Assembly (NCBI GenBank): GCA_947625705.1
Contig: CANQPG010000005.1
Location: forward strand, 2,531-66,530
Length of the DNA stretch: 64,000 bases
Direction of reading: 5' to 3'
DNA from: an uncultured Peptococcaceae bacterium
GTDB taxonomy: Bacteria; Bacillota; Dehalobacteriia; UBA4068; UBA4997
Of the stretch, positions 7,196 to 64,000 are shown in pieces. A program made the translations under genes and the position numbers. The notes beneath the pieces were generated by a model. The model ran no database searches, had not been told where the DNA came from, and was given only the letters and a program-made list of their open reading frames with translations. Numbering within the stretch: the stretch's first letter is position 1; each line of letters opens with the position of its first letter.

Positions 7196-8847
7196 CCAAA
7201 CGTATTTTCCGCTCCATCTGCCTGGCTGCCCTCGGCGTGGCCGCCGCTGCGGTAGTGCTGTTTCTGCTGGTGCTGTACGATTATTTCGGCGGCGTGCAGC
7301 AGCAGCAGCTGCAAATGCAGACGGAGCTGGCCGCGCAGGCTGTCACCAACGAGGGCATAACCTATTTTGACGGCCTGAACAGCGAGCAATACCGCATTAC
7401 CTGGGTCGCCGCGGACGGCAAGGTCATTTACGATAACCGTTCGGACTCCGCCGCGATGGAAAACCACCTGGAACGCGAGGAGATCCGGGCGGCGCTATTG
7501 ACCGGCGAGGGCAAAAGCTCCCGCTATTCCGACACATTGATGGAGCGGGCGCTTTACGCCGCCAAACGCCTGCCCGACGGCTCGGTGATCCGCCTTTCCG
7601 TCTCGCAGCACACTTTGCTGACGCTGTTTTTGGGTATGCTGCAGCCAATTTGCTTCATTATAATTATCGCCGGCGTTTTGTCGCTGGTGCTGGCGTCGCG
7701 CCTGGCCAAAAAAATCGTTGAGCCATTGAACGCGCTGGATCTGGAGCAGCCCTTAAGCAACGAGGGCTATGACGAGCTCTCCCCCCTCCTCCACCGCATT
7801 GACAGCCAGCAGCGGCAAATCAAACGGCAAAGCGAGGAGCTGGCGCAAAAGCAAAAAGAGTTTGAAACCGTCACCGAAAACATGACGGAAGGTATCATAC
7901 TGCTGAACACCAAGGGCGAGGTCATCGGTATCAACCGCGCCGCTCTGCGCCTGTTCGGGGCGGATACCGCCGCTCTCGGGCAGCATATGCTGGCGATCAA
8001 CCGCAGCCCCCAAATCACGGAGCTGCTGGCTGCCGCGGCGGCCGGGCGCCATGCCGAAAAAATGCTGGATATCGCGGGCGGGCGCTATCAGCTCATCTTA
8101 AGCCCGGTGAACAGCGGGAACGTGCCCTCGGGCGCGGTGCTGCTGGTGATCGACGCCACCGAAAAAGAAAAAGCCGAGCAAATGCGGCGGGAGTTTACAG
8201 CGAACGTCTCGCATGAGCTGAAGACGCCGCTGCACACCATCGCAGGCTCGGCGGAGCTTTTGGCCAACAACATGGTCAAAGAAGCCGATAAAATGGCATT
8301 TTATCAACGTATTCAGGCGGAAACGCAGCGCATGATCCGCCTGGTGGAGGATATTATCCGGCTTTCGCACCTGGACGAGGGCGCGGACGACATCAAACGC
8401 GAGCCGGTCGATTTGCTGGCGCTGGCGGCGGAAACGGTTAAGACGTTGCAGCCCGCCGCCGCAAAAGCGCAGGTCAGCCTGACACTTGCGGGCGAAGCCG
8501 CCGTTATCGAGGGTATCCCGCCGCTGCTGCAAAGTATCGTCTATAACCTCTGCGACAACGCCATCAAATATAACCGCGCGGGCGGCAGCGTCGCCGTATC
8601 GGTCACCCGGGCAAATGGTACGGTGCGGCTAAGCGTCGCCGATACCGGGATCGGAATTCCCGCCGAATATCAGGAGCGTATTTTTGAGCGTTTTTACCGG
8701 GTGGATCAAAGCCGCTCCAAGGAGCTGGGCGGCACCGGGCTGGGTCTCGCCATCGTCAAGCACGCGGCCAGACTGCACGGCGCCGAAATCGAGCTTAAAA
8801 GCGCCGCAAACGCCGGCGCCACCGTTACGGTTATTTTCCCGGTCTGA
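7192..8847 (+). CDS. phoR: Sensor histidine kinase (PhoR-type, by context)
   Basis: Two TM segments, PAS-like region, H-box FTANVSHELKTPL, N/G boxes NAIKYN...DTGIGIP...GGTGLGLAIVK. Confidence 0.85.
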   Translation: MTKRIFRSICLAALGVAAAAVVLFLLVLYDYFGGVQQQQLQMQTELAAQAVTNEGITYFDGLNSEQYRITWVAADGKVIYDNRSDSAAMENHLEREEIRAALLTGEGKSSRYSDTLMERALYAAKRLPDGSVIRLSVSQHTLLTLFLGMLQPICFIIIIAGVLSLVLASRLAKKIVEPLNALDLEQPLSNEGYDELSPLLHRIDSQQRQIKRQSEELAQKQKEFETVTENMTEGIILLNTKGEVIGINRAALRLFGADTAALGQHMLAINRSPQITELLAAAAAGRHAEKMLDIAGGRYQLILSPVNSGNVPSGAVLLVIDATEKEKAEQMRREFTANVSHELKTPLHTIAGSAELLANNMVKEADKMAFYQRIQAETQRMIRLVEDIIRLSHLDEGADDIKREPVDLLALAAETVKTLQPAAAKAQVSLTLAGEAAVIEGIPPLLQSIVYNLCDNAIKYNRAGGSVAVSVTRANGTVRLSVADTGIGIPAEYQERIFERFYRVDQSRSKELGGTGLGLAIVKHAARLHGAEIELKSAANAGATVTVIFPV

Positions 8848-9478: not shown

Positions 9479-9485
9479 CATTTAC

Positions 9486-12400
9486 TTAGGTCACGATAAA
9501 GTTGAAATGGCACTGTGCCAGCGGAGCCGTGCCCTGCCGCAGCTCAAAATAGACGCGGTAAGTGCCGGGCGTCATTCCGGCCGGCAATATCAGCTCACCG
9601 GAAAGGCCGTCAGCCGACATGGTATACGTCCAGCCGCTCGTCACAAAATCGGTGTAGCTGGCGTCTTCCGGTTTGGTGCCGGTCTTCCGCTTAACCGCGG
9701 TCAGCACGATACTTTCCCCGTCCGCCGGCGGTTGATCCGGTGTGATCCTGAACTCCAGGCTGCCGCCGGCAGCGCTGTCCACCAGCTGGCTGGCGCCGGC
9801 CGCCGGTTTGGCCACCATGCCCCTGCCATAGGAGGCGGCTTCGCCCCCACCGGATGCGGTCAATGCCAAATCGGGCGCGGCGGCGGAAGCAGCTTTAATA
9901 CTGCCGCTTTGGCAGATAGGCAGCGGGAAAAGCTCTGCCTTAACCGTTGTGCTTTCGTCCGGCGCGGCAAAGTCCCATTTTACCGCGGCGGTCTTGCCCT
10001 GCGTCAGCTGTGTTAAGGGCAGGAACACCGCGCCGTCGCCGACAATCAGATCAAGCTTCGTGCCGCCGGTATTGGCGGCTGCAACCTCCCCTGCCGCCGC
10101 ACCGGAAAGCCCGGTGAGCCGGATCAGCGAGCCGTCCATATAGTCCCAATCACCGGTGGGCGCCGTCACGGTAAGGGTGGTATCCGACCACGACATCGCC
10201 CCGTCCTCGGGCAGATCTGCCAACTTAAACGGCACTTCGCAGGTGGCGCAGCTGCCGGTGGGAAATTCCAGCGAGAAATAATATTCCCCGGGGTCAAGAC
10301 CGCTGTCTCGGAAATCCAGCAGGAAAAGCAGCGATTTGTCCACCACCGGCTGATTTTGCAGCGGCGGCTGCCATGGCCCCCGCCCGCGCACGTTGATCAG
10401 GTCGGTGGCTCTGATGGTTCCGTTCATGCCGCCGCTCTTAACATACCACCTGGGGTTGGCCGGATACGTGAGGTCGGCCATCAATATCCGGATCGGCGTG
10501 GTCACGACCTCGCCGGTGGAAGCGTTTTTCACCGAGATTTGGGGGAAACGTTCCGCGGCGTCGCCCTCGGTCAAAATGGGGGTATAGTTCAAAACCGTCT
10601 CCACGGTGATCGCGCCATTGGGCGCGACGGTGGGAGTAGTCAAATCAGGGGAATAAAACGTGCCATACTGCCGCCCAGCCTTAGCCCGCCCCGTCGATGT
10701 GCCCTCGCCCTGACCCTGGATCTCCACCTCAATGGTAAAGCGGCCGCGGCTGTCAGATGTCTCAGGCTCGCTCTTTTCATGCGCCAGCAGCGTGATGCAG
10801 ATCGTGCCGCCGGCCATTGTGCGGTTCGAGTACGAGAGATCAAAAGTGAAATACGGCAGGCCTTCAACCTTGGTTACCGGATAATGCGGCTGGGTATGCT
10901 GATAAATGATTTCGCCCACGTTGGGGTCAACAGTGCCGTCCGCATTGGTTTTATTCACAATATTGATATAGTGCATCTTGTCATGCCAAAGGTCGTCGTT
11001 TTGCAGCACATACATGGAGAGGGCTTGTGCCTGCGGGCTGCCCGCGGTGACGGGAGCAAGGTCTTTGGTGAGGATCGGCGTAAACTGCTCCAGATTGGGG
11101 TCAACGGGAACAAATACCGTGTCTTTGCGCACCGAAAGCGGCAGCGGAAACGTCAAGGTATCCTGATAATAGCCGTTGGCGTCCGGTGTGGTATCCTTAA
11201 GCTGCATCACCACGCGGGTTTTCACCGTGCGGCCGCCCAGCTGCCAATAATGATAACTTGCCGTCGCACCGGAATGAAGCGAAAGCCCCTCGGGCATCGT
11301 CTGATCCGGATCGGCCACGAACGCGCCGGTATTGATCTGCACGCCGTTTTCGTCCATGCCGTCAGGATCGCCGATATCGCTTTGCGTATTGGCGTGAATA
11401 AAGACGCCGTGATCCTCGGTATCCCCCTCGGAGCCCACCCAGCGCAGCGTGGTGACGCCCTTGACCTCGCCGTATGTCATCGTCTGGGTGCCGTTGGATA
11501 TCACCTTGGTGCCGATGATCAGCAGCTTGCCCGCCTGAATGGTGAGGACGTTGCCGTCTGCTTGCTCCGCCGGCGTGGCGCCGTCTTCCTTATAACTGCC
11601 GAAATTCGCCACCTCGTTGAGCTCGGTGTTGGCCGTCAGCTGCGATTTGACCAGTCTCACTTCCCCCCGCACCTGGGCGATGGAAAAGTCCAGATTGGTG
11701 CCGTCCACCTTATCGGTGGCGCCGGTCAAAGTGAGGTTACAGTTTTCAATGGTCACGGTATCGGCACGCTGCAGCGAATCGATCTCGCCGCTGAGGTTTT
11801 TCACATTGAGCGTGCGGGTGCCGCTGACCCGCGTCAGGTTACCGGAGCCGAAAATGCTGCCGCCGATGGTAACGTCGCCGGCGGTTTGCTCCACGTTAAC
11901 GGACGAATCGCCAAAGACGAGGAATTTTTCCTCATTGAATGTGGTGCCCTGGCCGTTGCAGCCGCCATAGATGGTCTTTTCCACGGTCACCGCCCCGGTA
12001 TCCGACGTAATATTCACAGCAGTGTCCCCGGTGATACGCGCCATGCTGGAGCCGCCGAACACCCTGAGGCCGATCCGGCCGCCCGAGATGTTAACGGTGC
12101 TGCTGCCAAAGACGGCGCCCAAGCCCTTGCCGCTGCCGACGCCGCTGCCGCCGCCGAACACGTCCCCGCTGATGAAACTCGTCTGCGCAACCGTGACGGT
12201 CGCGGAGCCGCCCACCGGGTTGGTTATTACCGCGGTTTCGTCAGTGTTGAACGTGCCCAAGCCCACCTTGCCGCAATAGCTGCCGCCGTAAACGCTGCCC
12301 AAAATCCTGCCGCCGGAGATCAGCACATTGGTCAAAACCGTGTTGGCGTCGGCGTTAAAGCCCCTGCCCTCCATGCCGATGGTGCCCAGCGAGCCGCCGC

Positions 12401-15400
12401 CATAGACATTGCCGTTGGCCACACTGCCGTCAATGCTTTCCTTGCCCACGGTGCCGCCGCTGATGCTAACGGTAGCAGAACGAGCCACCGCGCCGATGAT
12501 ATCGTCGGTGATATCCTCATTAATTTGCAGACCCTGGCCGCCGCCGTAGATATTCCCCGCGATGTCGCCGCCGGAGACTTCCACTTTGGTGGAGCCGCCG
12601 GCGCCGGCGTCGTCCCCCGCGTCAGTGATAACATTCTGCACCACGGCCTGGTCGCCGCCGCCGTAAACATTGCCGGTGACCAGGCCTCCCGATACAGATA
12701 CCGCTGTATCCCCGGTGACGGCGGCAGTCTCGGAATAACCGCCGCCATAAACATTACCCTGCACCGTGCCGCCCTGTACGGTAACGGCAGTATTGCCGGT
12801 AAGCTCGGCCTTATTGCCCCCGCCATAGACATTGCCGCTCACCGTGCCGCCGCGAATGTCAATAGTGGGGTTACCGGTGAGACTTGCCACATTGCCGCCG
12901 CCGTAGATATTGCCGCCCACACTGCCCTGATAAACGGTGACAAACGTGCTGCCGGTCATAGCGCTGCCGCTGTCCTCGACACCGGAAAGGCCGCCGAAGA
13001 CGCTGCCGGTCACACTGCCGCCCACCATGGTCAGTTTGGCGTCGCCATTGACCGTGCCCTCGTCCGAGGAAGCCACCAAATCGTTATTTATCGTGCCGCC
13101 GGCCATATAAACGCTGGAAAGACCGGAGGTGGAATTGCCTTTCTGATAGCCGCCGCCAAACAGGTAATTGGCCGAACCGCCCAGGAAGTGCAGATCACGG
13201 TTGCCCCCGGTCATGGAGACGCGGAAACTGCCGCCGTAAACGCGCTGATAATTGCCGCTGAAAATGGCCACCTGCGACGAGCCGTTAATAGCCGAAGTAC
13301 CGATACCGCCGCCAGTGCCGCCGAATATGTTGAGCGTGCCCGCAACCGTAATGCCATTGCCCATAATGAGCTTGTTGCAGGCGGCATAAAAAGCGTCAAA
13401 ATAATTCTCTCGCGTAAAGGAAGAATACTGCATCATATTGTCGTGCCCGGCGGACAACGCAATATCGCGGATAATCATCGGAGCTTCCAGTCTGGTAAAA
13501 ATATATTCCGAATCCAGCGAACAGGAATCCATGGAAAGCGTTCCGGTGCTGCCGGCCGCGGCAGCGGGATCAGTGCCGGTGACCGTACAAGGCAGTTCCG
13601 GTAAAGTATCGGTTCTGTTCCAATTAAAAATACTTCTCCCGCTCCAGCGCAGCTCGGCGTCGGTATCCACCACGATGATGTTCAGATACTTATCCTGCGG
13701 CGCCTGGCCGCCCGCATATACGCCAGTGAAATTGGCCATTGCCTGAGAAAGCGTATGCCCATAATCCCGCGATTGACTGTCAGCGCCGATGTCGCTCATA
13801 TACGCCGCAACACCCCAGTCCCACTGTGCCGTAAGCGTCGTGCCCGCCGGCACCAGATCGCCGGGGTCATAAGTGCTGCCGTCGTCGCCCAGCCAGCCGT
13901 CGAAGACGATAACCGTCTTGTATCTGCTGTCAGTCACACCGGGCGCGGCGATCTCCTGATTATCCGCGTCGTACAGTTTTTCCGGTGCGGCAAAGCCCAG
14001 ATCCTCCGGCCAGCGGGCATATGTCTGCTCGCCGTCCACGCAGGACATGGCAGCCGCCGTGCCGCTGCCCGTGCCGGGGGCAAACATCACCGTCGCCCCC
14101 TCCGCCAGAAGCACCAGCTCGTCGCTCCAGCAGGCGCATAAAATGGCCTCGCCGGCAGCCATATCCACCGGAAAAGCGTCGCCCGGGGCATATACCTGTT
14201 CACCCTCGGCGGTCAGCCAGCCCCGAAAAGTCCCCAACTCGGTGGCCGGGGCAAAAAATGCCGGGCAGGCCGGGGCGACCGCCTGACCGTTAAGCGCCAA
14301 AGCGCGCGCGGAAACCGCCTCGCCTGTTCCCGCGCCGGGAAGCAGATAAAGCGTAATTTCGCCGTCCGCCAATGTGTAGCCGGCCGCTTCGGCTGCGGCC
14401 AGGAATGTAAAATTCTCCGGGGCGCACAGGAACAAACCCGCCTGCCCGCCCGCGGCAGCGGGATAAAACACATCATTGCCCACCGTCTGCTGCGTGCGAA
14501 CTTCCACCCGATAATCGACCTGCGGTTCTTCGGTCTCCGCCGGCGTCGGTTCTTCGGTCTCGGCCGGTGCAGGTTCCTCGGTCTCCGCCGGCGTCGGTTC
14601 CTCAGTCTCCGCCGGTGCAGGTTCCTCGGTCTCCGCCGGTGCAGGTTCCTCGGTCTCCGCCGGTGCAGGTTTTTCGGTCTCGGCAGGCGCAGGCTCCTCG
14701 GTCTCCGCGGGCGTCGGTTCTTCGCTTTCCGCCGAGACATCATCTGCCGTTGCCGCCAAGGCAACTTTCGTACCGAATATGGCAGCAAGTATTGTGTTCC
14801 CGGTCGGGGTCTGCTCATCTTCCGCCGGCGCTGGCTGCTCGTCTTCCACCGGCGCCGGCTGCTCCTCTTCCGCCGGCGCGGGCTGCTCGTCTTCCACCGG
14901 CGCGGGCTGCTCATCTTCCGCCGGCGCGGGCTGCTCGTCTTCCGCCGGCGTTTGGTTCTCATCTTCCGCCGGCACTGGCTGTTCGTCTTCTGCCGGCGTT
15001 TGGTTCTCATCTTCCGCCGGCGTTTGGTTCTCATCTTCCACCGGCGCAGGCTGCTCATCTTCCGCCGGCACTGGCTGTTCGTCTTCTGCCGGCGCCGACT
15101 GCTCGTCTTCCGCCGGCGTTTGGTTCTCATCTTCCGCCGGCGCTGGTTCTTCCTCCTCGATCGGCTCCATCACGTCAGTCGGGTCAACGATCACAATGGG
15201 CGCAGATGTCGCAGGAGTGGTCACGACCTCCTCCAGCGATGTGAAATCATTAAATATGCAGGTAAAGTGCGGAGCTGCTGCCGCGTCCGCGCCGGAAAAG
15301 CAGCCGTCGCCCAATTCCAGCAGGCTGGCAGGCAGCGTCAATGTGCCCGTCAGGTTATAGCAGCCGTAGAACAAATAATCCCCCAGGCCGGTGACCCCCT

Positions 15401-15696: not shown

Positions 15697-16596
15697 TCAG
15701 TTGGTCGCCGCGGGCGCTTCGGCAACGGTATATGTAAAATCGCTCTCGCTGTAAACGTCCTCGGTATTCCTTTTCAGCAGAACCAGCGAGACCGTGCCCT
15801 GCGCGGGGATCAGCAGCGTACCCGTACCGGTGGCGTCAGTCGCCTGGGTCTCCCAGGTCGGATCCGGCACCAGCCGCATATCCTTATCCCGGGAATCCTC
15901 GGCCAGCAGATAAAACTCGCTGACCTTCAGCTTCAGACCCTCCACCAAGCAATCCTTTTGGCCGGTATTGTAAAACGTCACAGCCACCGCGCCATAGCTG
16001 CCTTTGCGGTCGGTCACTTTCATCACCACGGCGCTGTCCGCTGCCGCCAACGCCACCTGGGCGGTCAGCGTTTTGGCGTAAGGCGCGGTGGAGACCACGC
16101 TCACGGTCACCTCGTCAGTCCCGTCGGCGCCGAACGCTGCCACCGGGATCAGGCAGGTTATCGTCCTGTCGTTGACCGCCTTGCCGGCGATGGTTCCGCC
16201 GCTCCCGGTGCTGCCGCCGTCGTTCCAGGTAACGTCCACCGTATCGCCCGCCTGATTGACCGCGGCGCAGGTGTACATGATATCATTTTGGGTGGGAAAA
16301 TCCGCCACCGCATAATTCTTCAGCGTAAATGTGAAAGGCACCGTTTTGCCGCTTTCGTCGGGCGAGATACGGTGCAGCGTGCCGTCCAGCTCGCTGCTGG
16401 TAAAATAGAAATCCCCCGCCGTCACCAGCGAGTTATTCGACCAGTCCTGCAAATAACGGGCAGCGGTCACGCCCAGCATGGCCGCTGCGGCAAGGACTGC
16501 CGCCAGCAGCAGCAGACGCACCGCCGGCGGGCGGTGGAGAAAAGACGGGCGTCCGGCCGCCGTTTCGGCAGATTTTCGGGCTTGCTGCTGCGCCAT
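15697..16596 (-). CDS. Secreted TasA/BsaA-like protein 3, a putative SipW-cognate substrate. It has a long basic N-region, a hydrophobic core, and then the motif TAA|RY.
   Basis: N-terminus MAQQQARKSAETAAGRPSFLHRPPAVRLLLLAAVLAAAAMLGVTAARYLQDWSNNSLVTAG, which resembles SipW-cognate signal peptides (TIGR04088-like ...A.Y..D...NN...AG). The mature part is beta-rich and Thr/Gly-rich. RBS GGGGGAGGAAAA lies upstream. It is in an operon with sipW. Confidence 0.6.
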   Translation of the reverse strand: MAQQQARKSAETAAGRPSFLHRPPAVRLLLLAAVLAAAAMLGVTAARYLQDWSNNSLVTAGDFYFTSSELDGTLHRISPDESGKTVPFTFTLKNYAVADFPTQNDIMYTCAAVNQAGDTVDVTWNDGGSTGSGGTIAGKAVNDRTITCLIPVAAFGADGTDEVTVSVVSTAPYAKTLTAQVALAAADSAVVMKVTDRKGSYGAVAVTFYNTGQKDCLVEGLKLKVSEFYLLAEDSRDKDMRLVPDPTWETQATDATGTGTLLIPAQGTVSLVLLKRNTEDVYSESDFTYTVAEAPAATN

Positions 16597-17229: not shown

Positions 17230-17719
17230 GCTGCTCCGCCCCCCGTTTCTCCGGCAGAAAAATCAATATCGCGCCCCCGGCCGCCAAAAGCAATATGCCA
17301 AGGGGCTTTTGCAGCAACATCAACAGCTCGCCCGCCCCGGGCAGGCACAGCACCACCCGCCCCAGCACGTCCGCCGGGGGCACCGCCGCATCGTCGGGGG
17401 TGTTGTTGGCGTCGCCGCGGGTACGGTAAGCCGCCGCCGTTTTCTCGATAATTCGGTGGGTCACCACCGCGCCCTCCTGCCGAAAGGTGATGATATCCCC
17501 CACCGCATAATCCGCCTCGCGGTGGGCGATGACCATTGAACCGGCGGGGAGCGTTGGCTCCATGCTGCCGGTGGTGACGATCATCGGATAAAATCCCAGC
17601 ACGTGCGCCGGTTCCTGGTGCAGCACAAAGCGGGAAACCAGCAGCCCCATATCAACGGCCAGCACCAACGCCAGCAGGCAGACAAGTATGCCCCGGATAA
17701 ATCTCAGCAGCGTCCTCAT
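17204..17719 (-). CDS. sipW: Signal peptidase I, SipW/Sec11 (ER/archaeal) type, copy 1
   Basis: Motifs TGSMEPT, VTHRII and RGDANNTPD match the B. subtilis SipW boxes (SGSMEP / THRIV / GDNN). It has an N-terminal TM segment and a C-terminal TM segment. Confidence 0.85.
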   Translation of the reverse strand: MRTLLRFIRGILVCLLALVLAVDMGLLVSRFVLHQEPAHVLGFYPMIVTTGSMEPTLPAGSMVIAHREADYAVGDIITFRQEGAVVTHRIIEKTAAAYRTRGDANNTPDDAAVPPADVLGRVVLCLPGAGELLMLLQKPLGILLLAAGGAILIFLPEKRGAEQHEDTGKKV

Positions 17720-19026
17720 ACTGCGTCCTCCACCCGTATGTTCAGATGCAGGGTATAGATCCGGCCGTCGCGGCTGCCGAGAGCGGTGTCCACAACGTCG
17801 TTGCCGTCAAAAGGCCAGCGCCATTCAATGCGATAGCGCCGCTCACCGCTCGCCGCCAGCTGCACTGCACTGCTGACCGTTTCGCTGTCCAGAGCGGCAG
17901 TCTGCCAGTCCGTAAGCCCCCTGGGGGTCAGTTCATCAGTGGCCAGGCGGTATTCCAGGGGAATATGAAAATCCCCCTCCTTGATACCCAGGGTAAATTT
18001 GATGGCTCGGCTGCGGCCGTTTTTCACCCGAAAAAGATAATACCCCTCCGAGCCCGGCGCGATCAGCCTCTCGCCGTAGCCGTCCAACGGGCGGAACAGG
18101 TCGATCTCGGCCTGCTGCGTCCAGGTCTGCCAGCTCGCGCGGTCATCGCTGCGGCTGACCTCGACGGTTCCGGGGTCAGTATCGGGCGGCGTGGGCGGTT
18201 TGGGGTCAGGGTCGGTTCCCGAACCACCGCCGCCACCTCCGCCATCATCAGCACCGCCATCATCAGGCGCGGGCGCCGGCTTATCGGTGGGCTTATCGTC
18301 CGGTTTATCACCCGGTTTGTCCATCGGCTTGTCCGTGGGTTGTTCCGTCGGCTGCTCGCCGGGCTTGTCCGTCGTCTGCTCGCCGGGCTTAGCCCCCGGC
18401 GGTTCCGCCGGCGTTGTGCCGGGGCTGGCCGCCGCCTCATCTGCCTCACGGGTGCCTCTAAGCTCCACGTCAAGCCCGCCGTCGCCGTCCAATGTCAGTT
18501 CCACGTCCACCTCAACGGTCACGACCTTAATGTGCAGCACGCACACCATTGCTTCATAGTCAATGTAAGCGTCGCTCGCCGCGTCGCGAACCACGCGAAT
18601 GGTGCGGCCGGCCAGCACATTGCCCGCCGGATCCAGCACCGATAGCTCATGCTCCCCCGGCTCCACCTCATCAAAACGAAAATGCCCCGTCTCACTCAGG
18701 CGGGCGTAACGGGGCTCGCTATGGAGTTCCACCGAACCCTGCGAAAAAGGCGTGCCGTTGGTATAATGCACCACGCCCACAATGCTGATCCGCTCCGTCA
18801 GCTCCCCGGTTTGCGTGTTATCCGCAGGCGGCTCGGGCTGATCTGCGGGCGTAAGAACGATGGTGTCGATCAGCGCACCGGAGCGCCCGGGATCGGTGGT
18901 TCTGCCCAGCAAAAAGCCCACAATGCAGGACGTGGCCAGCATCAGAAACAGCAACAGCAGCAGCAAAGGCAGAATGATCCTGCGCTTTTGCCGTGCCGCC
19001 GTTTTTGCCTGAGCAGCTGTGTTCAA
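17716..19026 (-). CDS. Membrane-anchored accessory protein. Domains in order: N-terminal TM segment, transthyretin/carboxypeptidase-regulatory-like beta-sandwich domain, Pro/Asp/Lys-rich linker (DKPGEQPTEQPTDKP...), and a C-terminal globular domain. It is possibly a TapA-like fibre anchor or assembly factor.
   Basis: ORF 17716..19065. The probable real start is TTG at 19026, preceded by AAGGAGGAA plus a 7-nt spacer. The N-terminus is then MNTAAQAKTAARQKRRIILPLLLLLLFLMLA. A GSVEL...GHFRFDEVEPGEHELSV beta-sandwich motif is present. It lies between the two sipW modules. Confidence 0.55.
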   Translation of the reverse strand: MNTAAQAKTAARQKRRIILPLLLLLLFLMLATSCIVGFLLGRTTDPGRSGALIDTIVLTPADQPEPPADNTQTGELTERISIVGVVHYTNGTPFSQGSVELHSEPRYARLSETGHFRFDEVEPGEHELSVLDPAGNVLAGRTIRVVRDAASDAYIDYEAMVCVLHIKVVTVEVDVELTLDGDGGLDVELRGTREADEAAASPGTTPAEPPGAKPGEQTTDKPGEQPTEQPTDKPMDKPGDKPDDKPTDKPAPAPDDGGADDGGGGGGGSGTDPDPKPPTPPDTDPGTVEVSRSDDRASWQTWTQQAEIDLFRPLDGYGERLIAPGSEGYYLFRVKNGRSRAIKFTLGIKEGDFHIPLEYRLATDELTPRGLTDWQTAALDSETVSSAVQLAASGERRYRIEWRWPFDGNDVVDTALGSRDGRIYTLHLNIRVEDAV

Positions 19027-25427: not shown

Positions 25428-25503
25428 TGGAGCGGGCAAAGAGATTCGAACTCTCGACTTCCACCTTGGCAAGGTGGCACTCTACCACTGAGTTATACCC
25501 GCA
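25428..25503 (-). tRNA. tRNA-Gly (anticodon GCC)
   Basis: The reverse complement GCGGGTATAACTCAGTGGTAGAGTGCCACCTTGCCAAGGTGGAAGTCGAGAGTTCGAATCTCTTTGCCCGCTCCA folds as a cloverleaf. Confidence 0.9.
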
Positions 25504-25580
25504 TGGTGCCTTGGGGCGGAATCGAACCACCGACACGAGGATTTTCAGTCCTCTGCTCTGCCAACTGAGCTACCAAGGCA
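25504..25580 (-). tRNA. tRNA-Phe (anticodon GAA)
   Basis: The reverse complement is GCCTTGGTAGCTCAGTTGGCAGAGCAGAGGACTGAAAATCCTCGTGTCGGTGGTTCGATTCCGCCCCAAGGCACCA. Confidence 0.9.
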
Positions 25581-25584
25581 AGTA

Positions 25585-25661
25585 TGGCGACGCAGATGGG
25601 GCTCGAACCCACGACCTCCAGCGTGACAGGCTGGCATTCTAACCAACTGAACTACTGCGCC
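25585..25661 (-). tRNA. tRNA-Asp (anticodon GTC)
   Basis: The reverse complement is GGCGCAGTAGTTCAGTTGGTTAGAATGCCAGCCTGTCACGCTGGAGGTCGTGGGTTCGAGCCCCATCTGCGTCGCCA. Confidence 0.9.
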
Positions 25662-25668
25662 ATGATAG

Positions 25669-25744
<76 letters not shown>

Positions 25745-57065: not shown

Positions 57066-57152
57066 GCCGAAGTGGTGGAATTGGCAGACGCGCCGGACTC
57101 AAAATCCGGTGATGGCGACATCGTGTGGGTTCAAGTCCCACCTTCGGCACCA
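57066..57152 (+). tRNA. tRNA-Leu (anticodon CAA). It has a long variable arm.
   Basis: GCCGAAGTGGTGGAATTGGCAGACGCGCCGGACTCAAAATCCGGTGATGGCGACATCGTGTGGGTTCAAGTCCCACCTTCGGCACCA. Confidence 0.9.
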
Positions 57153-57190
57153 AAAAAACAAGTTGCCCCGCAGGGGCGGCTTGTTTTTTT
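57153..57190 (+). terminator. Rho-independent terminator after tRNA-Leu
   Basis: aaaaaaACAAGTTGCCCCGCAGGGGCGGCTTGTtttttttt. Confidence 0.7.
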
Positions 57191-57646
57191 TGCTGAGATG
57201 AGCGCAGAACCCACAAAACACCAAGCGGATACCTCTGACTGATGTTTGGGAAAAGGCCATTGGCAATCACGCCCAAAACTGCGGCAGCCAGGAAAGCGGT
57301 GTCCGCTTCAAGTCCCTCCAACAATTTTACTTAAGTTTAAGCTGGGGAAATTCTTGTCAAAATAAGGCTTGATCCTGCTTTTGACTGTAAATGAATAGTT
57401 AGAGTATTACTCTAAAATGCCTAAATATTTACCAAGACCGACCTTGGGTATAAGATGGCGGGAGCAAATCAAAAAGAATACTCTGCAAAAATTAACTTAC
57501 AGAGTATTCTTTTGCTTTTTGCCAATTAGTTTATATTTCTGCAAATACTTGTACGGCAAGTGCATTTCGTACTGCTATTAAAAATAATATCGGTAGCCAC
57601 ACTTTGGGAAATGGTATTTTTTTGGATAGTGGTACATCAACAGCTG

Positions 57647-57780
57647 CCTTTATTTACCGTCCTACTTATATATTCCCGCAAAAGTCGATTTGGTGACATT
57701 TTTTGGCAGTTTTTTTTTAAATTTGTCATAATGACAAAAAAGCCAGGCAGACCTTTAACAGTCTGTCTGGCTTTTTTATA
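57647..57780. repeat. Island inter-cassette element, copy 1. This is the 3' portion only: a terminator hairpin plus a promoter-like segment.
   Basis: About 85% identical to 59971-60110 and 62540-62680. It contains the hairpin AAGCCAGGCAGAC...GTCTGTCTGGCTT flanked by T/A runs. Confidence 0.8.
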
Positions 57781-57813
57781 GTTTATTTATACTCCGTTTT
57801 TAATTCTTAAAAT

Positions 57814-58719
57814 TTAATACCATGAGCCTTTACCACCCCAATAACCTGTTAGTTTCAACTCAAGCATACCACCATCATCATCAAAAGCTTGATAATAAAT
57901 GCTGCTATCAGCCAAATACCAGCAATCCTTCACCATATTATACAAATATATTTGATTACCTTCGCCATGTACAAATTGCCACTTTGCAACCAAATCGCCG
58001 GTGCGGTTATAAAAGCTGTATATTGAACCCAACAAATCAAGCGGAGTATACTTTGCAGGCGGGGCAACTTCTGCGCCTTGCCCCTCATATATCATGTATA
58101 TGCAGGTATTTATAATATCTTTGGTACGTATTGTTATGCACTGCTCCTCAGAAGATTTCTCTAACTTCATTGAATAAATAGGCTCGCCATCAATTGGTTG
58201 ACCCGGCAGAATAATTCTTACCACATCGGACTCATATTCAACCACACAATCAAGTTGTTCTGATAAGAAAGACAGCGGCAGCATGAGCTTTCTGTTTTTT
58301 AAATAGGGAACGCCACTCAATTCTTGCTCATACGTAAAATCCTTACATTCTAGCAGTTTTTGCAGAACAGATATGCCACTCTTCATATATGGCAATCTGC
58401 TCATTACCTGCATATAACGGCCTAGTGGTAGTTGAGGTAAGGATATTCTGATGGTTGCTTTTTGCTTACCACATACCAGTTCAATGCAACAATTGCTTTT
58501 GCTAATTATAAACACATCCCCATCTTGATGAAGATCTGCACCAATTTTCTTGGTAAGCGATTGTATTGGAACATAAATAAGTCCGTCATTCGTTTCAGGA
58601 GGCACGTCAAAATCCAATGCCTCACCATCAATACCAATATGCAACGCCCATGCAGGTGTTGCGGTATAAAACAAAATTATACTCAATATGACAGCAAACC
58701 ATAATTTTATTCTTCTCAT
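57814..58719 (-). CDS. Secreted protein with a copper-amine-oxidase N-terminal-like ('stalk') domain. Cassette 1, gene B.
   Basis: Signal peptide MRRIKLWFAVILSIILFYTATPAWA. The motif NDGLIYVPIQSLTKKIGADL resembles the CuAO-N domain signature (..yvPlR.la..lGa.v.w). It is AT-rich. Confidence 0.55.
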   Translation of the reverse strand: MRRIKLWFAVILSIILFYTATPAWALHIGIDGEALDFDVPPETNDGLIYVPIQSLTKKIGADLHQDGDVFIISKSNCCIELVCGKQKATIRISLPQLPLGRYMQVMSRLPYMKSGISVLQKLLECKDFTYEQELSGVPYLKNRKLMLPLSFLSEQLDCVVEYESDVVRIILPGQPIDGEPIYSMKLEKSSEEQCITIRTKDIINTCIYMIYEGQGAEVAPPAKYTPLDLLGSIYSFYNRTGDLVAKWQFVHGEGNQIYLYNMVKDCWYLADSSIYYQAFDDDGGMLELKLTGYWGGKGSWY

Positions 58720-58727
58720 TTTATTAC

Positions 58728-59864
58728 CTAAAATTTAATTGTATGTTTTTGACTAACTATACTTCCGGATGTATTACAGTTGAACGGCGGGAAATTAGCT
58801 GTACCAAAAATCTTGTTATTCTCCATCCAGCTATCTAATAGCGAAGAGTCCAAATCAATCATGTTATAATTACCAGACGTGCTGCTTTTACATAATTGTG
58901 TGTCATAATATTGAACAATTATTGTACCCAGACTGAGCTGCCCATCATAACCACCGTTATATCCCAATCCAGTTACACGCCCAGAACGCAGATTATTGAT
59001 TTCTGCATTGCTAAATGATTTTGCATAACCTAATACTATATACTGCATCTTACCATCAATATTTGTGCCATTGATATAATATTTCGCTTTTTTACTTGTA
59101 GATTCATATCTTAAGTTGTGCGTTATTGTAGTATTTCTTTTAAAACGCGTTGGCACATCACCATTGACATCTTCAAAATTTAAAGCCCCGCCATTAACTC
59201 TAATATATGGTGAATAGTCCAATTTAAGAATATTAAATTGGACCCCACCTTCCATATCAAAACCATTACCACTTAATATATTATAAATATATGGAACACT
59301 ACCATTTTCCGGTTTAAAATAATTGGTTGTCATGCCTATACTATATAGAGTTGGTAAATGAACTTTTGAAGTGATACCCATATATCCAGTTTTGGATACC
59401 TGCCTAATAAATGCTCCACTATCTTGACCAACAATTATATTTGCTCTCTCTGAGTCCGTCTGCATATTTTCTATTTCAACATTATAGTTCCCCAAATCAC
59501 AGTTGTCATAATTTAAGCTTCCAACATAGCCCTCTTCAGAAAAAACTCTCCCATCCTCTGTCAAATAATACACAAAAGCATTGTCAATAAGTTCTTTAAT
59601 AGCATTTTCTATATCTACAGCCATCGAAGTTTCCTGAACATTGATGGATTCCAAAAAAGCTTTTTGGTCAAGCAAGTTCATTTGCTTATAGTTTTGCAGT
59701 TGATACTCAACTTCTTCCTGTCTTAACTTGGCAATTTCTGTGACATAATCAATATCGTCATTTTCCTCCGCCGCCCAAGCCGGCATAGCAATCCCCAAAC
59801 AAATAATCAATGAAAGGATCATCGCTAATAAGCTTCTGCGTTTCATAAAAGAAACCTCCTCCAA
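58728..59864 (-). CDS. Secreted Asn/Tyr/Gly-rich protein of unknown function. Cassette 1, gene A.
   Basis: Signal peptide MKRRSLLAMILSLIICLGIAMPAWA|AEEN. This is almost identical to the signal peptide of 61192..62415. The mature part is divergent. RBS GGAGGAGG. Confidence 0.6.
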   Translation of the reverse strand: MEEVSFMKRRSLLAMILSLIICLGIAMPAWAAEENDDIDYVTEIAKLRQEEVEYQLQNYKQMNLLDQKAFLESINVQETSMAVDIENAIKELIDNAFVYYLTEDGRVFSEEGYVGSLNYDNCDLGNYNVEIENMQTDSERANIIVGQDSGAFIRQVSKTGYMGITSKVHLPTLYSIGMTTNYFKPENGSVPYIYNILSGNGFDMEGGVQFNILKLDYSPYIRVNGGALNFEDVNGDVPTRFKRNTTITHNLRYESTSKKAKYYINGTNIDGKMQYIVLGYAKSFSNAEINNLRSGRVTGLGYNGGYDGQLSLGTIIVQYYDTQLCKSSTSGNYNMIDLDSSLLDSWMENNKIFGTANFPPFNCNTSGSIVSQKHTIKF

Positions 59865-59867
59865 AAA

Positions 59868-60110
59868 TGTAAATAGTAACGATAAACATGGCTGATCTGC
59901 TCGCCAATCTAAGCATTTCTACCCCCTAACTCCCTCCTGCCCCTAATATGATTTCCGAGCAAAATCTTTGCCTTTATTTACCGTCCTACTTATATATTCC
60001 CGCAAAAGTCGATTTGGTGACATTTTTTGGCAATTTTTTCAAAAAAATTTATCATAATGACAAAAAAGTCAGATAGACCGTTAACGGCCTATCTGACTTT
60101 TATTATTGTT
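59868..60110. repeat. Island inter-cassette element, copy 2. It is ~240 bp and comprises a terminator, a promoter-like region and a conserved ~130-nt 5' leader of the downstream minus-strand gene.
   Basis: Aligns with 62435-62680 along its full length with few mismatches. Confidence 0.8.
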
Positions 60111-60207
60111 AACGATCAAACTGAATGTCCGACGAGACTAATCAAGCGAAAATGCAGCGCACTGTTATCTGCCTTTACAAATATTATATTATACCCCATA
60201 GTATTAG

Positions 60208-61176
60208 CTATTCTGATAAGGCTTTAAGCATAGTTTGCTCTCCGCCATCCAGTGGCAGCAGATATCTGCCATAAGTTTGCTGCATCAATTCCTCATCTTC
60301 GACAACATCATCTGATAACGCAGCTTCTGCTATCCCGTTAATCAGCACACCTTCATTCTTAACCCGCCAGTCCTTCGGCTGAGTGGTGTAACCGGTCAGC
60401 ACATACAGCGGTCCATCCTTCTTTATGGTTATGTTATATAGATAATCAGGATCGCCGAGCTGCGTTTTTTTACCATCAGTTAAATCAACGGCATATACGC
60501 GGTATTTATCGCCAAAGCCCATTTGCATTGCCAAATAATAGCATACCCCATCCTTTATCTGCCAATCTGTAATATTCCAATCAGCGGCCAAACGCCGACA
60601 TTGCCCGTCAGATTTAAGCTCCCAAAGGTAATCCGTGCCGGTTGTCCCCTCGCCCAGATGAACCGTCCGATAACAAGCCTCCTGCCCGGCGGCTTTCTTA
60701 ATGGGAGTGTATTTCATACCATCATAATATTGCCATTGCCCGGCAATATAAACAAAAGGAAAATCAACCTCAATCTGCTGCTGTTCTCTATTCCAATGAA
60801 CCTTAACCTCACATAAATTTCTTATCGCATAAAGCGGCAGATAAAGCTGATTGTTACGAATCAAAGGCTCTCTACTCTCATTCATTTCTTTGCCATCCAA
60901 ATACCATTTGCCGCCAGTCAGCTTAAAAACCGTAGTATCCAGCCCAGTGCTTACGGTAGCCTGTTTGTTGGCATTATCCCAGTCAATCGTCACGCAGCAA
61001 AGCTCAATAGTATCGCGCAGTGGTAAATACGCTGTTTCATTCTGAATAAAGGCCGTCAACTTGCCTGTTTCACCGTTAAAACTTATTGGACAAGTCGCCG
61101 TTGTTGCTGCCAGAACAGCCTGTGGCATAAAGCAAAATACTAAACAAATTAAGCCAAATGCAATTTTTTGTTTCAT
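60208..61176 (-). CDS. Secreted protein with a copper-amine-oxidase N-terminal-like domain. Cassette 2, gene B.
   Basis: Signal peptide MKQKIAFGLICLVFCFMPQAVLA. Motifs NETAYLPLRDTIELCCVTIDWD and NQLYLPLYAIRNL. Confidence 0.55.
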   Translation of the reverse strand: MKQKIAFGLICLVFCFMPQAVLAATTATCPISFNGETGKLTAFIQNETAYLPLRDTIELCCVTIDWDNANKQATVSTGLDTTVFKLTGGKWYLDGKEMNESREPLIRNNQLYLPLYAIRNLCEVKVHWNREQQQIEVDFPFVYIAGQWQYYDGMKYTPIKKAAGQEACYRTVHLGEGTTGTDYLWELKSDGQCRRLAADWNITDWQIKDGVCYYLAMQMGFGDKYRVYAVDLTDGKKTQLGDPDYLYNITIKKDGPLYVLTGYTTQPKDWRVKNEGVLINGIAEAALSDDVVEDEELMQQTYGRYLLPLDGGEQTMLKALSE

Positions 61177-61191
61177 AATAATCGCCTTTAT

Positions 61192-62415
61192 TTATTGTCT
61201 TTTAATATACATGGAAACTGTACCATTACCAATATTGTAATAATTATATTCCCCGTCACCATCATCAGAATATTCGAATTTAGAACTATTCTGTATTTGA
61301 TTATTAATAGCAATTTTATTAAAAATGCCAACATTATATGCCGGAGCAGTGCCACTGCCACCAATAGCAGTTACCCATTTATGATAATTAACACTTTCAA
61401 GATTATATACGGTGTTAGATTCCATAATACTTGTAAGTTGTGTAGGCCCACCATTGCCATTTCTATCAGCATATCTGGCCAAACCATAAGCTTTTAATAC
61501 AATCGAACCTTTGCTTCCCCAACCACTATTATCAATATCGACACTTTGATTATTGGGTACGCAAACTATTGTAATATCTTGACCAGGCATATAACCATTC
61601 ATATATGTTGCCTCTTGACGATTTGGCAGAAAAATTCCCTTTTCAGTGACTTTTTTGCCATTTGCCTTAGTGGCAGTAATCGTCATAAAACATTTCCAAA
61701 CATCTGTGTCAGGATTCTGATAAACTAATCCCAAATCTGCTTCAAGCTTACTAAACGCATCAGCAGAAAAGCCCCCAGAAAAGCCGCTATAAATATAAAG
61801 ATTCGAACTGCTCGCTGTCGCCGCAGATATAGTAGCGCTATCAGGCAATGTAATAACACACTGCGAAGGATTTACAGTGCTATTATAAATCTCCATTCTA
61901 GCATGATAGCTTACAGAGTTAGTAGCAAAAGGCATTTCTATCATGGGCATCTCGTTCAAAAGCTTTTGTGCATACATTTTTTGCATTTCCATTTTATCAT
62001 CTTCCGTCAGAAGAACAACATCCATTTCAGCCTGCATAGGAGAGTCGGCCGTCTGTTCATAAAAGAAAATTTCATCCGCGCCCACAAGGGTATAATTAAA
62101 TGTGCCTTCAGGTTTGCCGTTAGAATCAAAGTGCATATCATTTCTATACGATGTCATAGCTTTATTATATGCGTTGATAATATCGGATTGCTGCACTTCT
62201 TTATCCGCAGTAGAAGAAACAATATTTACCATCACCTGCTTATTTTCTCCGTTTAGGTTAATATTAGCATCTTCCAATACCTTGCTTGTTTCATTAGCAC
62301 CTGCTTTAATAGAGCAGCCATCGCTGTTAGTTTCCTCTGCCGCCCAAGCCGGCATAGCAATCCCCAGGCACATGACCAATGAAAGGATCATCGCTAATAA
62401 AGTTCTCTTTTTCAT
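61192..62415 (-). CDS. Secreted Asn/Ser/Gly/Tyr-rich protein, paralogue of 58728..59864. Cassette 2, gene A.
   Basis: Signal peptide MKKRTLLAMILSLVMCLGIAMPAWA|AEET. The first ~85 nt of the CDS are nearly identical to the cassette-1 gene and then diverge. Confidence 0.6.
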   Translation of the reverse strand: MKKRTLLAMILSLVMCLGIAMPAWAAEETNSDGCSIKAGANETSKVLEDANINLNGENKQVMVNIVSSTADKEVQQSDIINAYNKAMTSYRNDMHFDSNGKPEGTFNYTLVGADEIFFYEQTADSPMQAEMDVVLLTEDDKMEMQKMYAQKLLNEMPMIEMPFATNSVSYHARMEIYNSTVNPSQCVITLPDSATISAATASSSNLYIYSGFSGGFSADAFSKLEADLGLVYQNPDTDVWKCFMTITATKANGKKVTEKGIFLPNRQEATYMNGYMPGQDITIVCVPNNQSVDIDNSGWGSKGSIVLKAYGLARYADRNGNGGPTQLTSIMESNTVYNLESVNYHKWVTAIGGSGTAPAYNVGIFNKIAINNQIQNSSKFEYSDDGDGEYNYYNIGNGTVSMYIKRQ

Positions 62416-62434
62416 AAAAGAACCCTCCTTAAAA

Positions 62435-62680
62435 AATTAAATAGTAACGATAAACATGGCTGATCTGCTCGGCAATCTAAGCATTCCTACCCCCGAAGCT
62501 CCTTTCTGCCCCTAATATGATTCTGGGCAAAATCCTGCCTTTATTTACCGTCCTACCTATATATTCCAAAACAAGTGCGTTTGGTTACATTTTTTTGACA
62601 ATTTTTTCAAAAAAGTTTATCATAATGACAAAAAGGCAGATGGACCGTTAAAGGTCTATCTACCTTTTTGTCATTAAAAG
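62435..62680. repeat. Island inter-cassette element, copy 3 (~240 bp)
   Basis: Aligns with 59868-60110. Confidence 0.8.
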
Positions 62681-62716
62681 CTCACTAAGTCTTTTTTCTT
62701 TTTGGGCACCTGCAAT

Positions 62717-63622
62717 TTATGCCGCCGATGAGTATATTAAATGTTTATGCATCTGATTAAGCGTTGTGCGGTATGCTGTTTCATCAAATACATACCATTT
62801 ATCTGCGTTAACATCATACAATAAATTGCGGCTATCTTCGCCAAATTCGGGTTCTCCCTCGTACATATGAAACAACTGATAACTCAGCAAAGCCTTATCT
62901 GCCGGGATATCGTTTTGCGTCGGCATCTCCTGATAAAAATATAGAATATCAGTTAAGGCGTAGTAATCATAGACTGTAAAGGTTGATCCATAATCGGTTT
63001 TTGGCTCTGCAACCTCTCTTATCCTGCCAGAACTTAATGCTTCATATATTGGAGCAATATTGCTATAAAGATAGCGCGAACGAGACATCCCAAAGCCGTT
63101 TTCTGTTGTCATATAGAACAGGTTGTTTCCGTTAATCACTACCGGGCTACCAATAATATAATTAATAAAAACCGTCTTTTGTAGTGCGTTATAACTAATT
63201 TGCCAGCCCGGAATTGATTCTGCCAGAAAACGCAGCGGTACATAGGTTTTGCTATGCCAAAGATGGGCTGGAGCATCTAGAGCAATATTTTCTGGCTGTT
63301 TTCCAGGATAAGTTATTGTTGCCACTTTAGCGCCCAGAGATAATGTTATTACAGTGTCATTATAAGTCAACTGTATTGTCTTATCAGCATAACTTACATA
63401 GGCACCCATTTTCTCTGTAAGAGCGCGCAACGGAAGGTAGACGCGACCGTTGATTATTCTATAAGGAATTTCAGCAGTTATATCCTGACCATTTAATATC
63501 AGTTTGGTTTGAGTTGCTGTTGCTGTAATGGGCATTGACATTACCAATAAAACCAGCATAATGGTTGCAAAAAGCTTACGCACAATAGTCTCCTTATTTA
63601 TAAATCGATACATAAGAACCAC
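62717..63622 (-). CDS. Secreted protein with two copper-amine-oxidase N-terminal-like motifs. Cassette 3, gene B.
   Basis: Signal-anchor N-terminus. Motifs INGRVYLPLRALTEKMGAYVSY and SKTYVPLRFLAESIPGW. Confidence 0.55.
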   Translation of the reverse strand: MVLMYRFINKETIVRKLFATIMLVLLVMSMPITATATQTKLILNGQDITAEIPYRIINGRVYLPLRALTEKMGAYVSYADKTIQLTYNDTVITLSLGAKVATITYPGKQPENIALDAPAHLWHSKTYVPLRFLAESIPGWQISYNALQKTVFINYIIGSPVVINGNNLFYMTTENGFGMSRSRYLYSNIAPIYEALSSGRIREVAEPKTDYGSTFTVYDYYALTDILYFYQEMPTQNDIPADKALLSYQLFHMYEGEPEFGEDSRNLLYDVNADKWYVFDETAYRTTLNQMHKHLIYSSAA

Positions 63623-64000
63623 TTCGGTGAATATAAGAATTAGTACAATCTATAGTACCATACCATTGATTATTTTTCCAATTACTATATTCACTATATG
63701 AACTCCATGCTTTGGAGTTGTTTTCATAGTAGCGTTTAACAAATACATTAGCATATTTTTGATTTAACGATTTTGTACTTATATTACTACCATTAAAACT
63801 CGTCTTGCCAATAGAAGTCATCCTTTTTACGGATACACCATTAATATTTGCGTTATTAAATCCTGTATTTGCTGAATGTAAGTAATCAGGACCATACAAG
63901 TATGCTGTATAATTAGCATCAGCAGTAGATGATTTTTTTAAGAAGAAACTAACATCCTTAATAGTATCACCGGAGTAAAAGGGGAATTTTTCTGCATAAG
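63594..64000 (-). CDS. 3' part of a cassette-3 gene A (Asn/Ser/Tyr-rich protein). Its 5' end lies beyond the window.
   Basis: The minus-strand frame is open from 64000 down to the stop at 63594. The TTG/Met shown in the ORF track is internal. Confidence 0.4.
   Translation of the reverse strand, partial: YAEKFPFYSGDTIKDVSFFLKKSSTADANYTAYLYGPDYLHSANTGFNNANINGVSVKRMTSIGKTSFNGSNISTKSLNQKYANVFVKRYYENNSKAWSSYSEYSNWKNNQWYGTIDCTNSYIHRSGSYVSIYK

Follow-up and report, generated by a model that had tools for sequence, protein, structure and literature searches.

What kind of element is the AT-rich block that closes a long stretch of chromosome from an uncultured Peptococcaceae bacterium (GCA_947625705.1, CANQPG010000005.1, positions 2,531–66,530)? 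The stretch that was analysed, 64,000 nt in total, is referred to below as the window, and the block occupies its last part, downstream of a tRNA-Leu(CAA) gene. It carries repeated pairs of genes for exported proteins, here named A and B, and the original prediction took it for a tRNA-associated island whose cassettes diversify by recombination. On balance, we think it somewhat probable that the block is an AT-rich accessory array of at least three bicistronic operons, each encoding an exported YrpD-type protein and a stalk-domain partner, which share a common 5′ module for expression and export; control by an extracytoplasmic function (ECF) sigma factor and a partner role for B are presumed. 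It is a fairly ordinary, uncharacterised accessory gene array and not an antigen-switching or toxin system.

The long open reading frames (ORFs) of the island are all encoded on the minus strand, in three pairs: A3–B3, A2–B2 and A1–B1. A1 (58728–59846) encodes an exported protein of 372 residues and is followed by B1 (57814–58719; 301 residues, exported). A2 (61192–62415; 407 residues, exported) precedes B2 (60208–61176; 322 residues, exported). B3 (62717–63583; 288 residues, exported) has a GTG start and lies behind A3, of which the C-terminal 134 of 399 residues are encoded in the window (63594–64000) and the remainder beyond its end. A contig of the European Nucleotide Archive (ENA), designated L012 (1861 bp), is 99.9% identical to window positions 63109–64000 and reaches 969 nt further. 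It shows full-length A3 behind a module that is 92.6% identical to the A1 copy, and the ENA protein P0014 (399 residues) differs from the A3 fragment at a single residue. Searches for exact copies of the proteins A2, B3, P0001, P0013 and P0023 returned no record, and L012 alone extended the locus. The A1 gene had been started at a TTG codon at 59864; its real start is the ATG at 59846 (MKRRS...). Gaps between A and B are 8, 15 and 10 nt in cassettes 1, 2 and 3, respectively, so that each pair is predicted to be a bicistronic operon, and a terminator scan located a strong hairpin with a T run downstream of every B gene. The tandem arrangement of three minus-strand units (module, A, B and terminator) that had been predicted is thus borne out by the ORF pairs, the repeats, the hairpins and the A3 module read in L012. 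Overall, the island consists of three complete module–A–B units and one orphan module.

The module that precedes all three A genes is ∼345 nt long and 87–93% identical at the DNA level. As delimited by a repeat finder and a three-way alignment, it takes in the hairpin behind the upstream B gene, ∼235 nt of intergenic DNA and the initial 28 codons of the A gene. From upstream to downstream it contains a bidirectional terminator, an A-tract, a promoter-like motif (TGTCACC, 17 nt, GAATAT), a leader of ∼145 nt, a ribosome-binding site and a signal peptide of 28 codons. The copy in front of A1 (59757–60101, minus strand) comprises the terminator (60064–60101), −35 and −10 elements (TGTCAC, 60022–60017; GAATAT, 59999–59994), the leader (59847–59990), the ribosome-binding site GGAGGAGG and the signal-peptide codons (59846–59763). 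The copy in front of A2 (62326–62669, minus strand) has the same parts, with the terminator at 62630–62669, TGTAAC at 62589–62584, GAATAT at 62566–62561, the leader at 62416–62557 and the signal-peptide codons at 62415–62332. The repeat between B2 and A1 is 87% identical to that between B3 and A2 over 60101–59757 and ∼50% identical on either flank. In a windowed global alignment, 22–29 of every 30 positions match from 60084 to 59757 and 11–19 of 30 outside these limits. Identity collapses 90 nt into the coding sequence, in agreement with the ∼85 nt of coding sequence that had been noted originally.

The signal peptides of A1 and A2 had been described as near-identical, and 24 of their 28 positions do match; A1, A2 and A3 share 24–25 of 28 positions with one another. 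The A1 signal peptide itself spans residues 1–25. Three differences among the 28 signal-peptide codons are synonymous, and the DNA divergence of this segment therefore resembles that of the untranslated region (UTR). A near-identical signal peptide heads at least 12 different mature proteins in public data, and looser matches are exported proteins with a similar Sec signal peptide (ALVMCLGLAVPAWAAE type), many of them unrelated. A scan of metagenome contigs with a signal-peptide alignment returned two weak, uninformative loci. A lipobox at the signal-peptide cysteine was considered and rejected, as the preceding residues (LIIC, LVMC) are unlike a lipobox and a standard AWA|AE cleavage site follows.

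The mature parts of the A proteins were originally taken to be unrelated, and BLASTP does find only the signal peptide in common between A1 and A2. Profile comparison reveals them instead as remote homologues. A2 passes the Pfam YrpD model (PF15493) with 72.7 bits against a cut-off of 26.4, whereas A1 and A3 have no direct Pfam match and are too diverged for this model. The profile of the A1 family aligns with that of the A2/YrpD family with an hhalign probability of 98.9% (E = 2.6e-17), and A1 matches the YrpD-annotated protein P0010 directly (E = 1e-5) and aligns with full-length A3 at 28% identity over 98% of the length. Thus, although their bodies are less than 30% identical to each other, A1, A2 and A3 are old, very diverged paralogues of the YrpD family that are homologous along their whole length. 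Of the Asn/Tyr/Gly-rich composition first ascribed to these proteins, the Asn richness holds (9–12% Asn) and the Tyr richness is only moderate.

A1 consists of a signal peptide, a pro-like N-terminal region and a C-terminal β-sandwich domain. The A protein layout, which was modelled for A2 alone, comprises a pro-like region of ∼140 residues followed by a β-sandwich of the glutamic-peptidase (eqolisin/neprosin/CPAVM1) fold. The closest match of the C-terminal domain in the A2 model is CPAVM1 (PDB entry 8xai; Foldseek E = 1.7e-9, target-normalised template-modelling score 0.72), followed by the zymogen and mature forms of neprosin with E values of about 1e-6. All ten A-like proteins in a sequence alignment keep Tyr209 and Gly229, as well as an acidic residue at A2 position 227. 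The latter position aligns with what we take to be the first catalytic residue of scytalidoglutamic peptidase, on the basis of sequence and not of a structural superposition. The A proteins resemble the glutamic peptidases (eqolisins, MEROPS G1; neprosin, G3) in overall fold and in a layout reminiscent of a zymogen with prodomain and catalytic sandwich, but identity is ∼10% and the second catalytic glutamate is not conserved in A1 or A3. Modelled in this way, A would be a secreted protease or a protease-like binder. CPAVM1 of B. subtilis is a secreted protease according to Li et al. (2024), as cited in PMC13291215, and is the sole YrpD family member with reported protease activity. YrpD and YncM, which are secreted and under repression by AbrB, have no assigned function (bioRxiv 10.64898/2026.06.23.734000). 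Like the A proteins, YrpD and YncM (PF15493) are Sec-exported and contain the same β-sandwich domain (shown for A2), but the A proteins have an extra pro-like N-terminal region of ∼140 residues and their genes stand in tandem, each with a dedicated downstream partner gene. To our knowledge, B. subtilis yrpD has not been described with a stalk-domain partner.

B1, B2 and B3 had been described as copper-amine-oxidase-N-like stalk proteins, and all three exceed the gathering score of Pfam Cu_amine_oxidN1 (PF07833; E = 2e-11 for B1 and 6e-16 for B2). This N-terminal domain is fused to a C-terminal domain of a different type in each protein (types 1, 2 and 3 in B1, B2 and B3, respectively), and that of B2 has a weak DUF5050-like match. 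Stalk domains are common in cell-wall hydrolases according to one surfaceome paper (PMC4137172). Compared with other PF07833 stalk proteins of Firmicutes, those of the island stand out in that three different uncharacterised C-terminal domains are each paired with a specific YrpD-like partner. A type-3 C-terminal domain without the stalk domain is encoded downstream of a YrpD gene in a related locus (L004). We infer that B would tether, mature or restrain its own A at the cell wall.

Are the A and B bodies variable, as the original prediction had it, or conserved? Conservation of the bodies had been named beforehand as the finding that would overturn that claim, and it is what related genomes contain. 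Orthologues of A2 (53–54% identity) occur in loci L001 and L002 (Candidatus Avidehalobacter gallistercoris), with orthologues of B2 downstream of them (65% identity in L002 and 46% in L001). An orthologue of A1 (54%) followed by a B1-type gene is found in L004–L007, the B1-type protein of L004 being 30% identical to B1, and a further B1-type gene is present in L001 (31%). Orthologues of B3 (51–70%) in L001 and L009 are preceded by remnants of A3-type genes, consisting in L001 of a leader and a signal peptide that runs into a stop and in L009 of the last 19 codons of A3. The A3–B3 pairing is also present in L012. Since A–B pairs are conserved across genomes at 30–65% identity, the bodies are conserved types and not hypervariable, and specific A types have kept their specific B types across long divergence. 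No other observation points as strongly to each A acting together with its own B as this conserved pairing. A scan of genome contigs with a YrpD alignment returned only the already known Avidehalobacter contig.

These findings bear directly on an explanation in which the block is an antigen-switching array of the Mycoplasma vlp/vsa type, or an array of polymorphic toxins (A) and immunity proteins (B), with orphan modules supplying new ends. In the Mycoplasma vlp/vsp/vsa families and the Borrelia erp/mlp families, with their 'upstream homology box', a conserved block of promoter, 5′ UTR and signal peptide heads divergent bodies and is spread by recombination; both groups are lipoproteins under phase or antigenic variation. 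The island resembles them in having a conserved upstream and signal-peptide block on clustered, divergent tandem paralogues, and orphan and remnant modules and a chimeric gene, described below, fit the same scheme. The strict cognate A–B pairing is reminiscent of toxin–immunity logic, and the L004 locus contains a PedC-like bacteriocin accessory gene. However, the cassettes are two-gene units whose bodies are orthologous types conserved across genomes, and each is complete, with its own promoter motif, ribosome-binding site and signal peptide. The shared N-terminus is a cleavable Sec signal peptide alone, without a lipobox, and no switching apparatus (invertase, inverted recombination sites or spacer homopolymer) was found. 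Polymorphic toxins combine a large conserved trafficking N-terminus with a variable C-terminal toxin, whereas the A proteins share only the 28-residue signal peptide. Toxin systems carry a small cognate immunity gene directly downstream; a cognate gene also stands directly downstream here, but it encodes an exported stalk-domain protein of 288–322 residues, unlike typical immunity proteins. No toxin-domain matches were obtained, and searches against NCBIfam and PADLOC returned none. An array for antigen switching or for conflict is therefore quite improbable, and the kinship to surface-antigen or polymorphic-effector diversification that had been proposed is unsupported, as the bodies are conserved orthologous types with cognate A–B pairing and only the signal peptide is shared.

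If the cassettes form an ordinary accessory array, what would bring them to expression together? The motif that follows the hairpin and A-tract of the module reads TGTCACC (TGTAACC in one copy) with a 17-nt spacer and GAATAT. It is present at every cassette, and those in other loci show the same arrangement, their second element being TATTCT, CATATA or CGTTCT. One copy of the motif in L004 separates a sigma-70-family gene from a gene for a DUF4367 membrane protein and another precedes the A1 orthologue; the L008 copy follows directly after a pair of ECF sigma and DUF4367 genes. Its position next to these genes suggests a promoter that is read by that sigma factor, putatively an alternative one of the ECF type held by DUF4367 as anti-sigma factor. 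Since related loci encode such a pair beside the motif, an envelope or extracellular signal would switch on the cassettes together. Known ECF sigma/anti-sigma regulons offer a comparison: related loci have, ahead of the cassettes, an ECF sigma gene and the gene for a membrane protein whose DUF4367 domain is extracytoplasmic, with the shared motif directly upstream of both the anti-sigma-like gene and the cassettes. The motif (TGTCAC, 17 nt, GAATAT or TATTCT) mostly lacks the usual AAC...CGT signature. Comparison by eye with consensus sequences for the sporulation sigma factors (K, E, F/G and H) and SigI gave fits that were inconsistent across copies, and these candidates were dropped. The L004 sigma gene beside the DUF4367 gene (6846–7568) has an internal tandem duplication of region 2, with two near-identical Sigma70_r2 stretches.

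Small exported proteins of 111–144 residues without a Pfam family are encoded at L004 8537–8971, L008 9506–9934 and L001 9513–9848. In L004 and L008 they are flanked by the DUF4367 gene and the first A-type gene; the L001 member comes straight after a module. Those of L008 and L001 are 42% identical, while the L004 member was grouped with them by position and size alone. This family may be a further member of the regulon.

The leader of ∼145 nt is predicted to fold with a long closing helix formed by a 5′ strand (GUAGGACGGUAAAUA) and a 3′ strand (UGUUUAUCGUUACUA). Minimum free-energy z-scores are −3.96 and −2.17, and the closing-helix pairs are mostly kept in the L001 copy of the leader, which is 68% identical. 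Rfam 15 assigned no family to the intergenic element or leader, with only tRNA and chance matches at the level of microRNAs at E values of up to 1.

Several observations weigh against the account given so far. On the regulatory side, the −10 region of the predicted promoter motif is variable, and neither a sigma gene nor a DUF4367 gene was detected in the 64-kb window with tblastn. The leader structures were compared over five sequences of which four are nearly identical, and a covariance model built from the leader retrieved nothing beyond the five copies on which it was trained; with covariation evidence this thin, no new RNA family is claimed. The A2 model has a mean predicted local distance difference test (pLDDT) score of 60, with the N-terminal 167 residues unreliable and the sandwich domain at ∼75. 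In the sequence alignment, the candidate second catalytic acid (A2 Glu332) is missing from A1, A3 and P0010, so that some A proteins may be non-catalytic. The C-terminal domains of the B proteins gave no informative structural match, which makes the role assigned to B a guess. Finally, copies of the module in a related metagenome contig (L013) are 87–88% identical to those of the window, on a par with the identity of the window copies among themselves. Homogenisation of the module is consequently not obviously recent, and purifying selection could contribute to its uniformity.

How, then, did a uniform module come to stand on such divergent bodies? One possible answer dispenses with recombination altogether: an old duplicated module would have been kept by strong purifying selection, and AT-richness would be a selected property of resident genes and not a sign of transfer. 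Apart from the L013 copies, this explanation draws on the predicted structure of the leader, on the looser versions of the signal peptide that are common in many unrelated exported proteins, and on the low GC content (guanine plus cytosine), which the cassettes retain in three high-GC genomes despite divergence of the orthologues to 46–65% identity. Against it stands the distribution of the signal peptides. Where L001 and L004 carry orthologous bodies, 53–54% identical to A2 and A1, the signal peptides in front of them agree with those of the window at only 13–14 of 28 positions, whereas the paralogues of the window share the 24–25 of 28 positions given above; the module thus follows the genome and not the body. 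L001 uses another module, with 86% identity between two copies, at the head of three unrelated bodies. Its sites (12408–12559, 13784–13935 and 16069–16220) consist of a promoter motif, a short leader and a signal peptide that begins MMKRSIVILSL.... The edges of homology are sharp on both sides of the window module, and the three synonymous differences in the signal-peptide codons, with a DNA divergence similar to that of the UTR, likewise count against selection alone.

A chimeric junction and broken modules point in the same direction. At L013 1432–1602, a stalk-domain gene has a chimeric start composed of an A3-type tail and the first 12 codons of B3, then a signal-peptide module, and then a stalk-domain body of the P0013 type; the first part is 89% identical to window positions 63623–63549 and the signal-peptide part is 85% identical to its counterpart. 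L001 also contains two decayed modules. That at 17640–17930 is the leader and signal peptide running into a stop before the B3 orthologue, and in that at 9480–9515 the start codon has changed to GGG, so that the gene has been called from an internal ATG. The L013 chimera and the orphan and remnant modules show actual shuffling, and the module would have been spread and homogenised by recombination or gene conversion between cassettes. Recombination is therefore the likely cause of a conserved 5′ module on divergent bodies, and its complete absence seems improbable. Cassette diversification by recombination, as first proposed, survives in its 5′ half, where the mosaic edges, the chimera and the orphan modules argue for a recombining module, and fails in its other half, where the bodies are conserved.

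Where the block came from is a separate question. GC content is 0.54–0.67 upstream and 0.32–0.47 from 57250 to the end of the window (500-nt windows), a fall from about 0.58 to about 0.37. GC at third codon positions (GC3) is 0.30–0.43 in the five complete island genes, compared with 0.76 and 0.79 in the two genes immediately upstream. The island genes are compositionally foreign to their high-GC host. The tRNA-Leu(CAA) gene (57066–57152, plus strand; ARAGORN; 57 bits with the Rfam tRNA model) has its 3′ end towards the island and is followed by a spacer of host-like GC (57153–57330; 0.46–0.58) that includes the terminator hairpin of the tRNA (57165–57177). A finer profile places the shift at ∼57300–57340. 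The drop near the tRNA that was originally reported is therefore real in both GC and GC3 but lies elsewhere than at the tRNA terminator, and with ∼170 nt of host-like DNA intervening the compositional junction does not coincide with the tRNA 3′ end. A slightly lower GC content also accompanies a cluster of four tRNA genes (Gly-GCC, Phe-GAA, Asp-GTC and Val-TAC) at 25428–25744 on the minus strand.

The surroundings of the cassettes differ in each genome examined (L001, L002, L004, L008 and L009), and their deviant composition together with this variable position is one criterion by which genomic islands are recognised. The L004 contig, which carries the sigma/DUF4367 pair and the A1 and B1 orthologues, is uniformly ∼33% GC and suggests a low-GC source. 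Horizontal acquisition of the cassettes is likely. Does it follow that the block is a classical integrative island, inserted into the 3′ end of tRNA-Leu by a tyrosine integrase, with the integrase and the far repeat beyond position 64000? The sharp GC and GC3 break near the tRNA 3′ end, the changing chromosomal contexts and the low-GC contig are all compatible with such an origin, as is the counterpart island in L001, which is complete from gltX to tRNA-Leu(CAG) and likewise adjoins a tRNA-Leu 3′ end. However, a search with the last 24 nt of the tRNA (up to three mismatches) brought up no repeat of it elsewhere, either in the window, which stops short of the far boundary of its island, or in the complete island of L001. 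No integrase or recombinase gene was found in 57153–64000, in the additional sequence from L012 or in the whole L001 island. The loci in L002, L004, L008 and L009 have no tRNA, the junction is displaced as described, and searches of phage and plasmid DNA gave no similarity. At most ∼3.3 kb of the source contig (67,352 bp) lies outside the window, and up to ∼2.4 kb is left once the L012 extension is taken off. Insertion into tRNA-Leu, as originally proposed, is thus unsupported, and we judge an integrase-borne island to be improbable.

Taken further, the accessory-array reading leads to a bolder proposal that we regard as doubtful: the cassettes would belong to an undescribed regulon of some Clostridia in which an ECF sigma/DUF4367 pair switches on secreted YrpD-type proteases, each with a cell-wall-bound partner acting as inhibitor, anchor or maturation factor, and which grows by pasting a portable module (promoter, structured leader RNA of a new class and signal peptide) onto new genes. 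If the accessory-array model holds, it would provide the first genomic context for the secreted YrpD family, with a dedicated partner and a candidate regulator, and a context for the very common and unexplained stalk-domain proteins of Firmicutes. The array is in any case a clean natural example of a promoter–leader–signal-peptide block kept uniform across otherwise ancient paralogues. It may be useful for understanding how bacteria enlarge a co-regulated secretome, and the module might serve as an expression and secretion tag in gut Clostridia that are poorly tractable; several of the cassette-bearing Clostridia are known only from gut-derived metagenome assemblies. The array has no bearing on a long-standing open question and does not conflict with known biology. 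Of its features, the leader RNA and a possible control by ECF/DUF4367 most deserve follow-up.

The orphan copy of the module lies after B1 (57645–57776, minus strand), is truncated to the hairpin and ∼95 nt with no gene behind it, and is 88% identical to the A1 copy over 142 nt. It contains the terminator hairpin (57737–57776), the −35 element TGTCAC (57698–57693), the −10 element GAATAT (57675–57670) and then ∼20 nt from the start of the leader. At a distance of about 130 nt, at 57470–57515, comes an 11-bp inverted repeat (AGAATACTCTG ... CAGAGTATTCT) flanked on both strands by T runs, which was missed by the terminator scan because its loop is 14 nt. Placed between the orphan module and the tRNA, the repeat may act as a terminator in both directions. 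Together, the two could mark a deleted cassette or be the source of a short transcript. All three module copies in the window also carry sigma-70-like hexamers on the opposite strand (57703–57732, 60027–60055 and 62595–62623, plus strand), reading TTGGCA or TTGACA, 17–18 nt, and TATCAT or CATAAT. These pairs are directed into the terminator hairpin and may be chance occurrences in AT-rich DNA or an antisense start.

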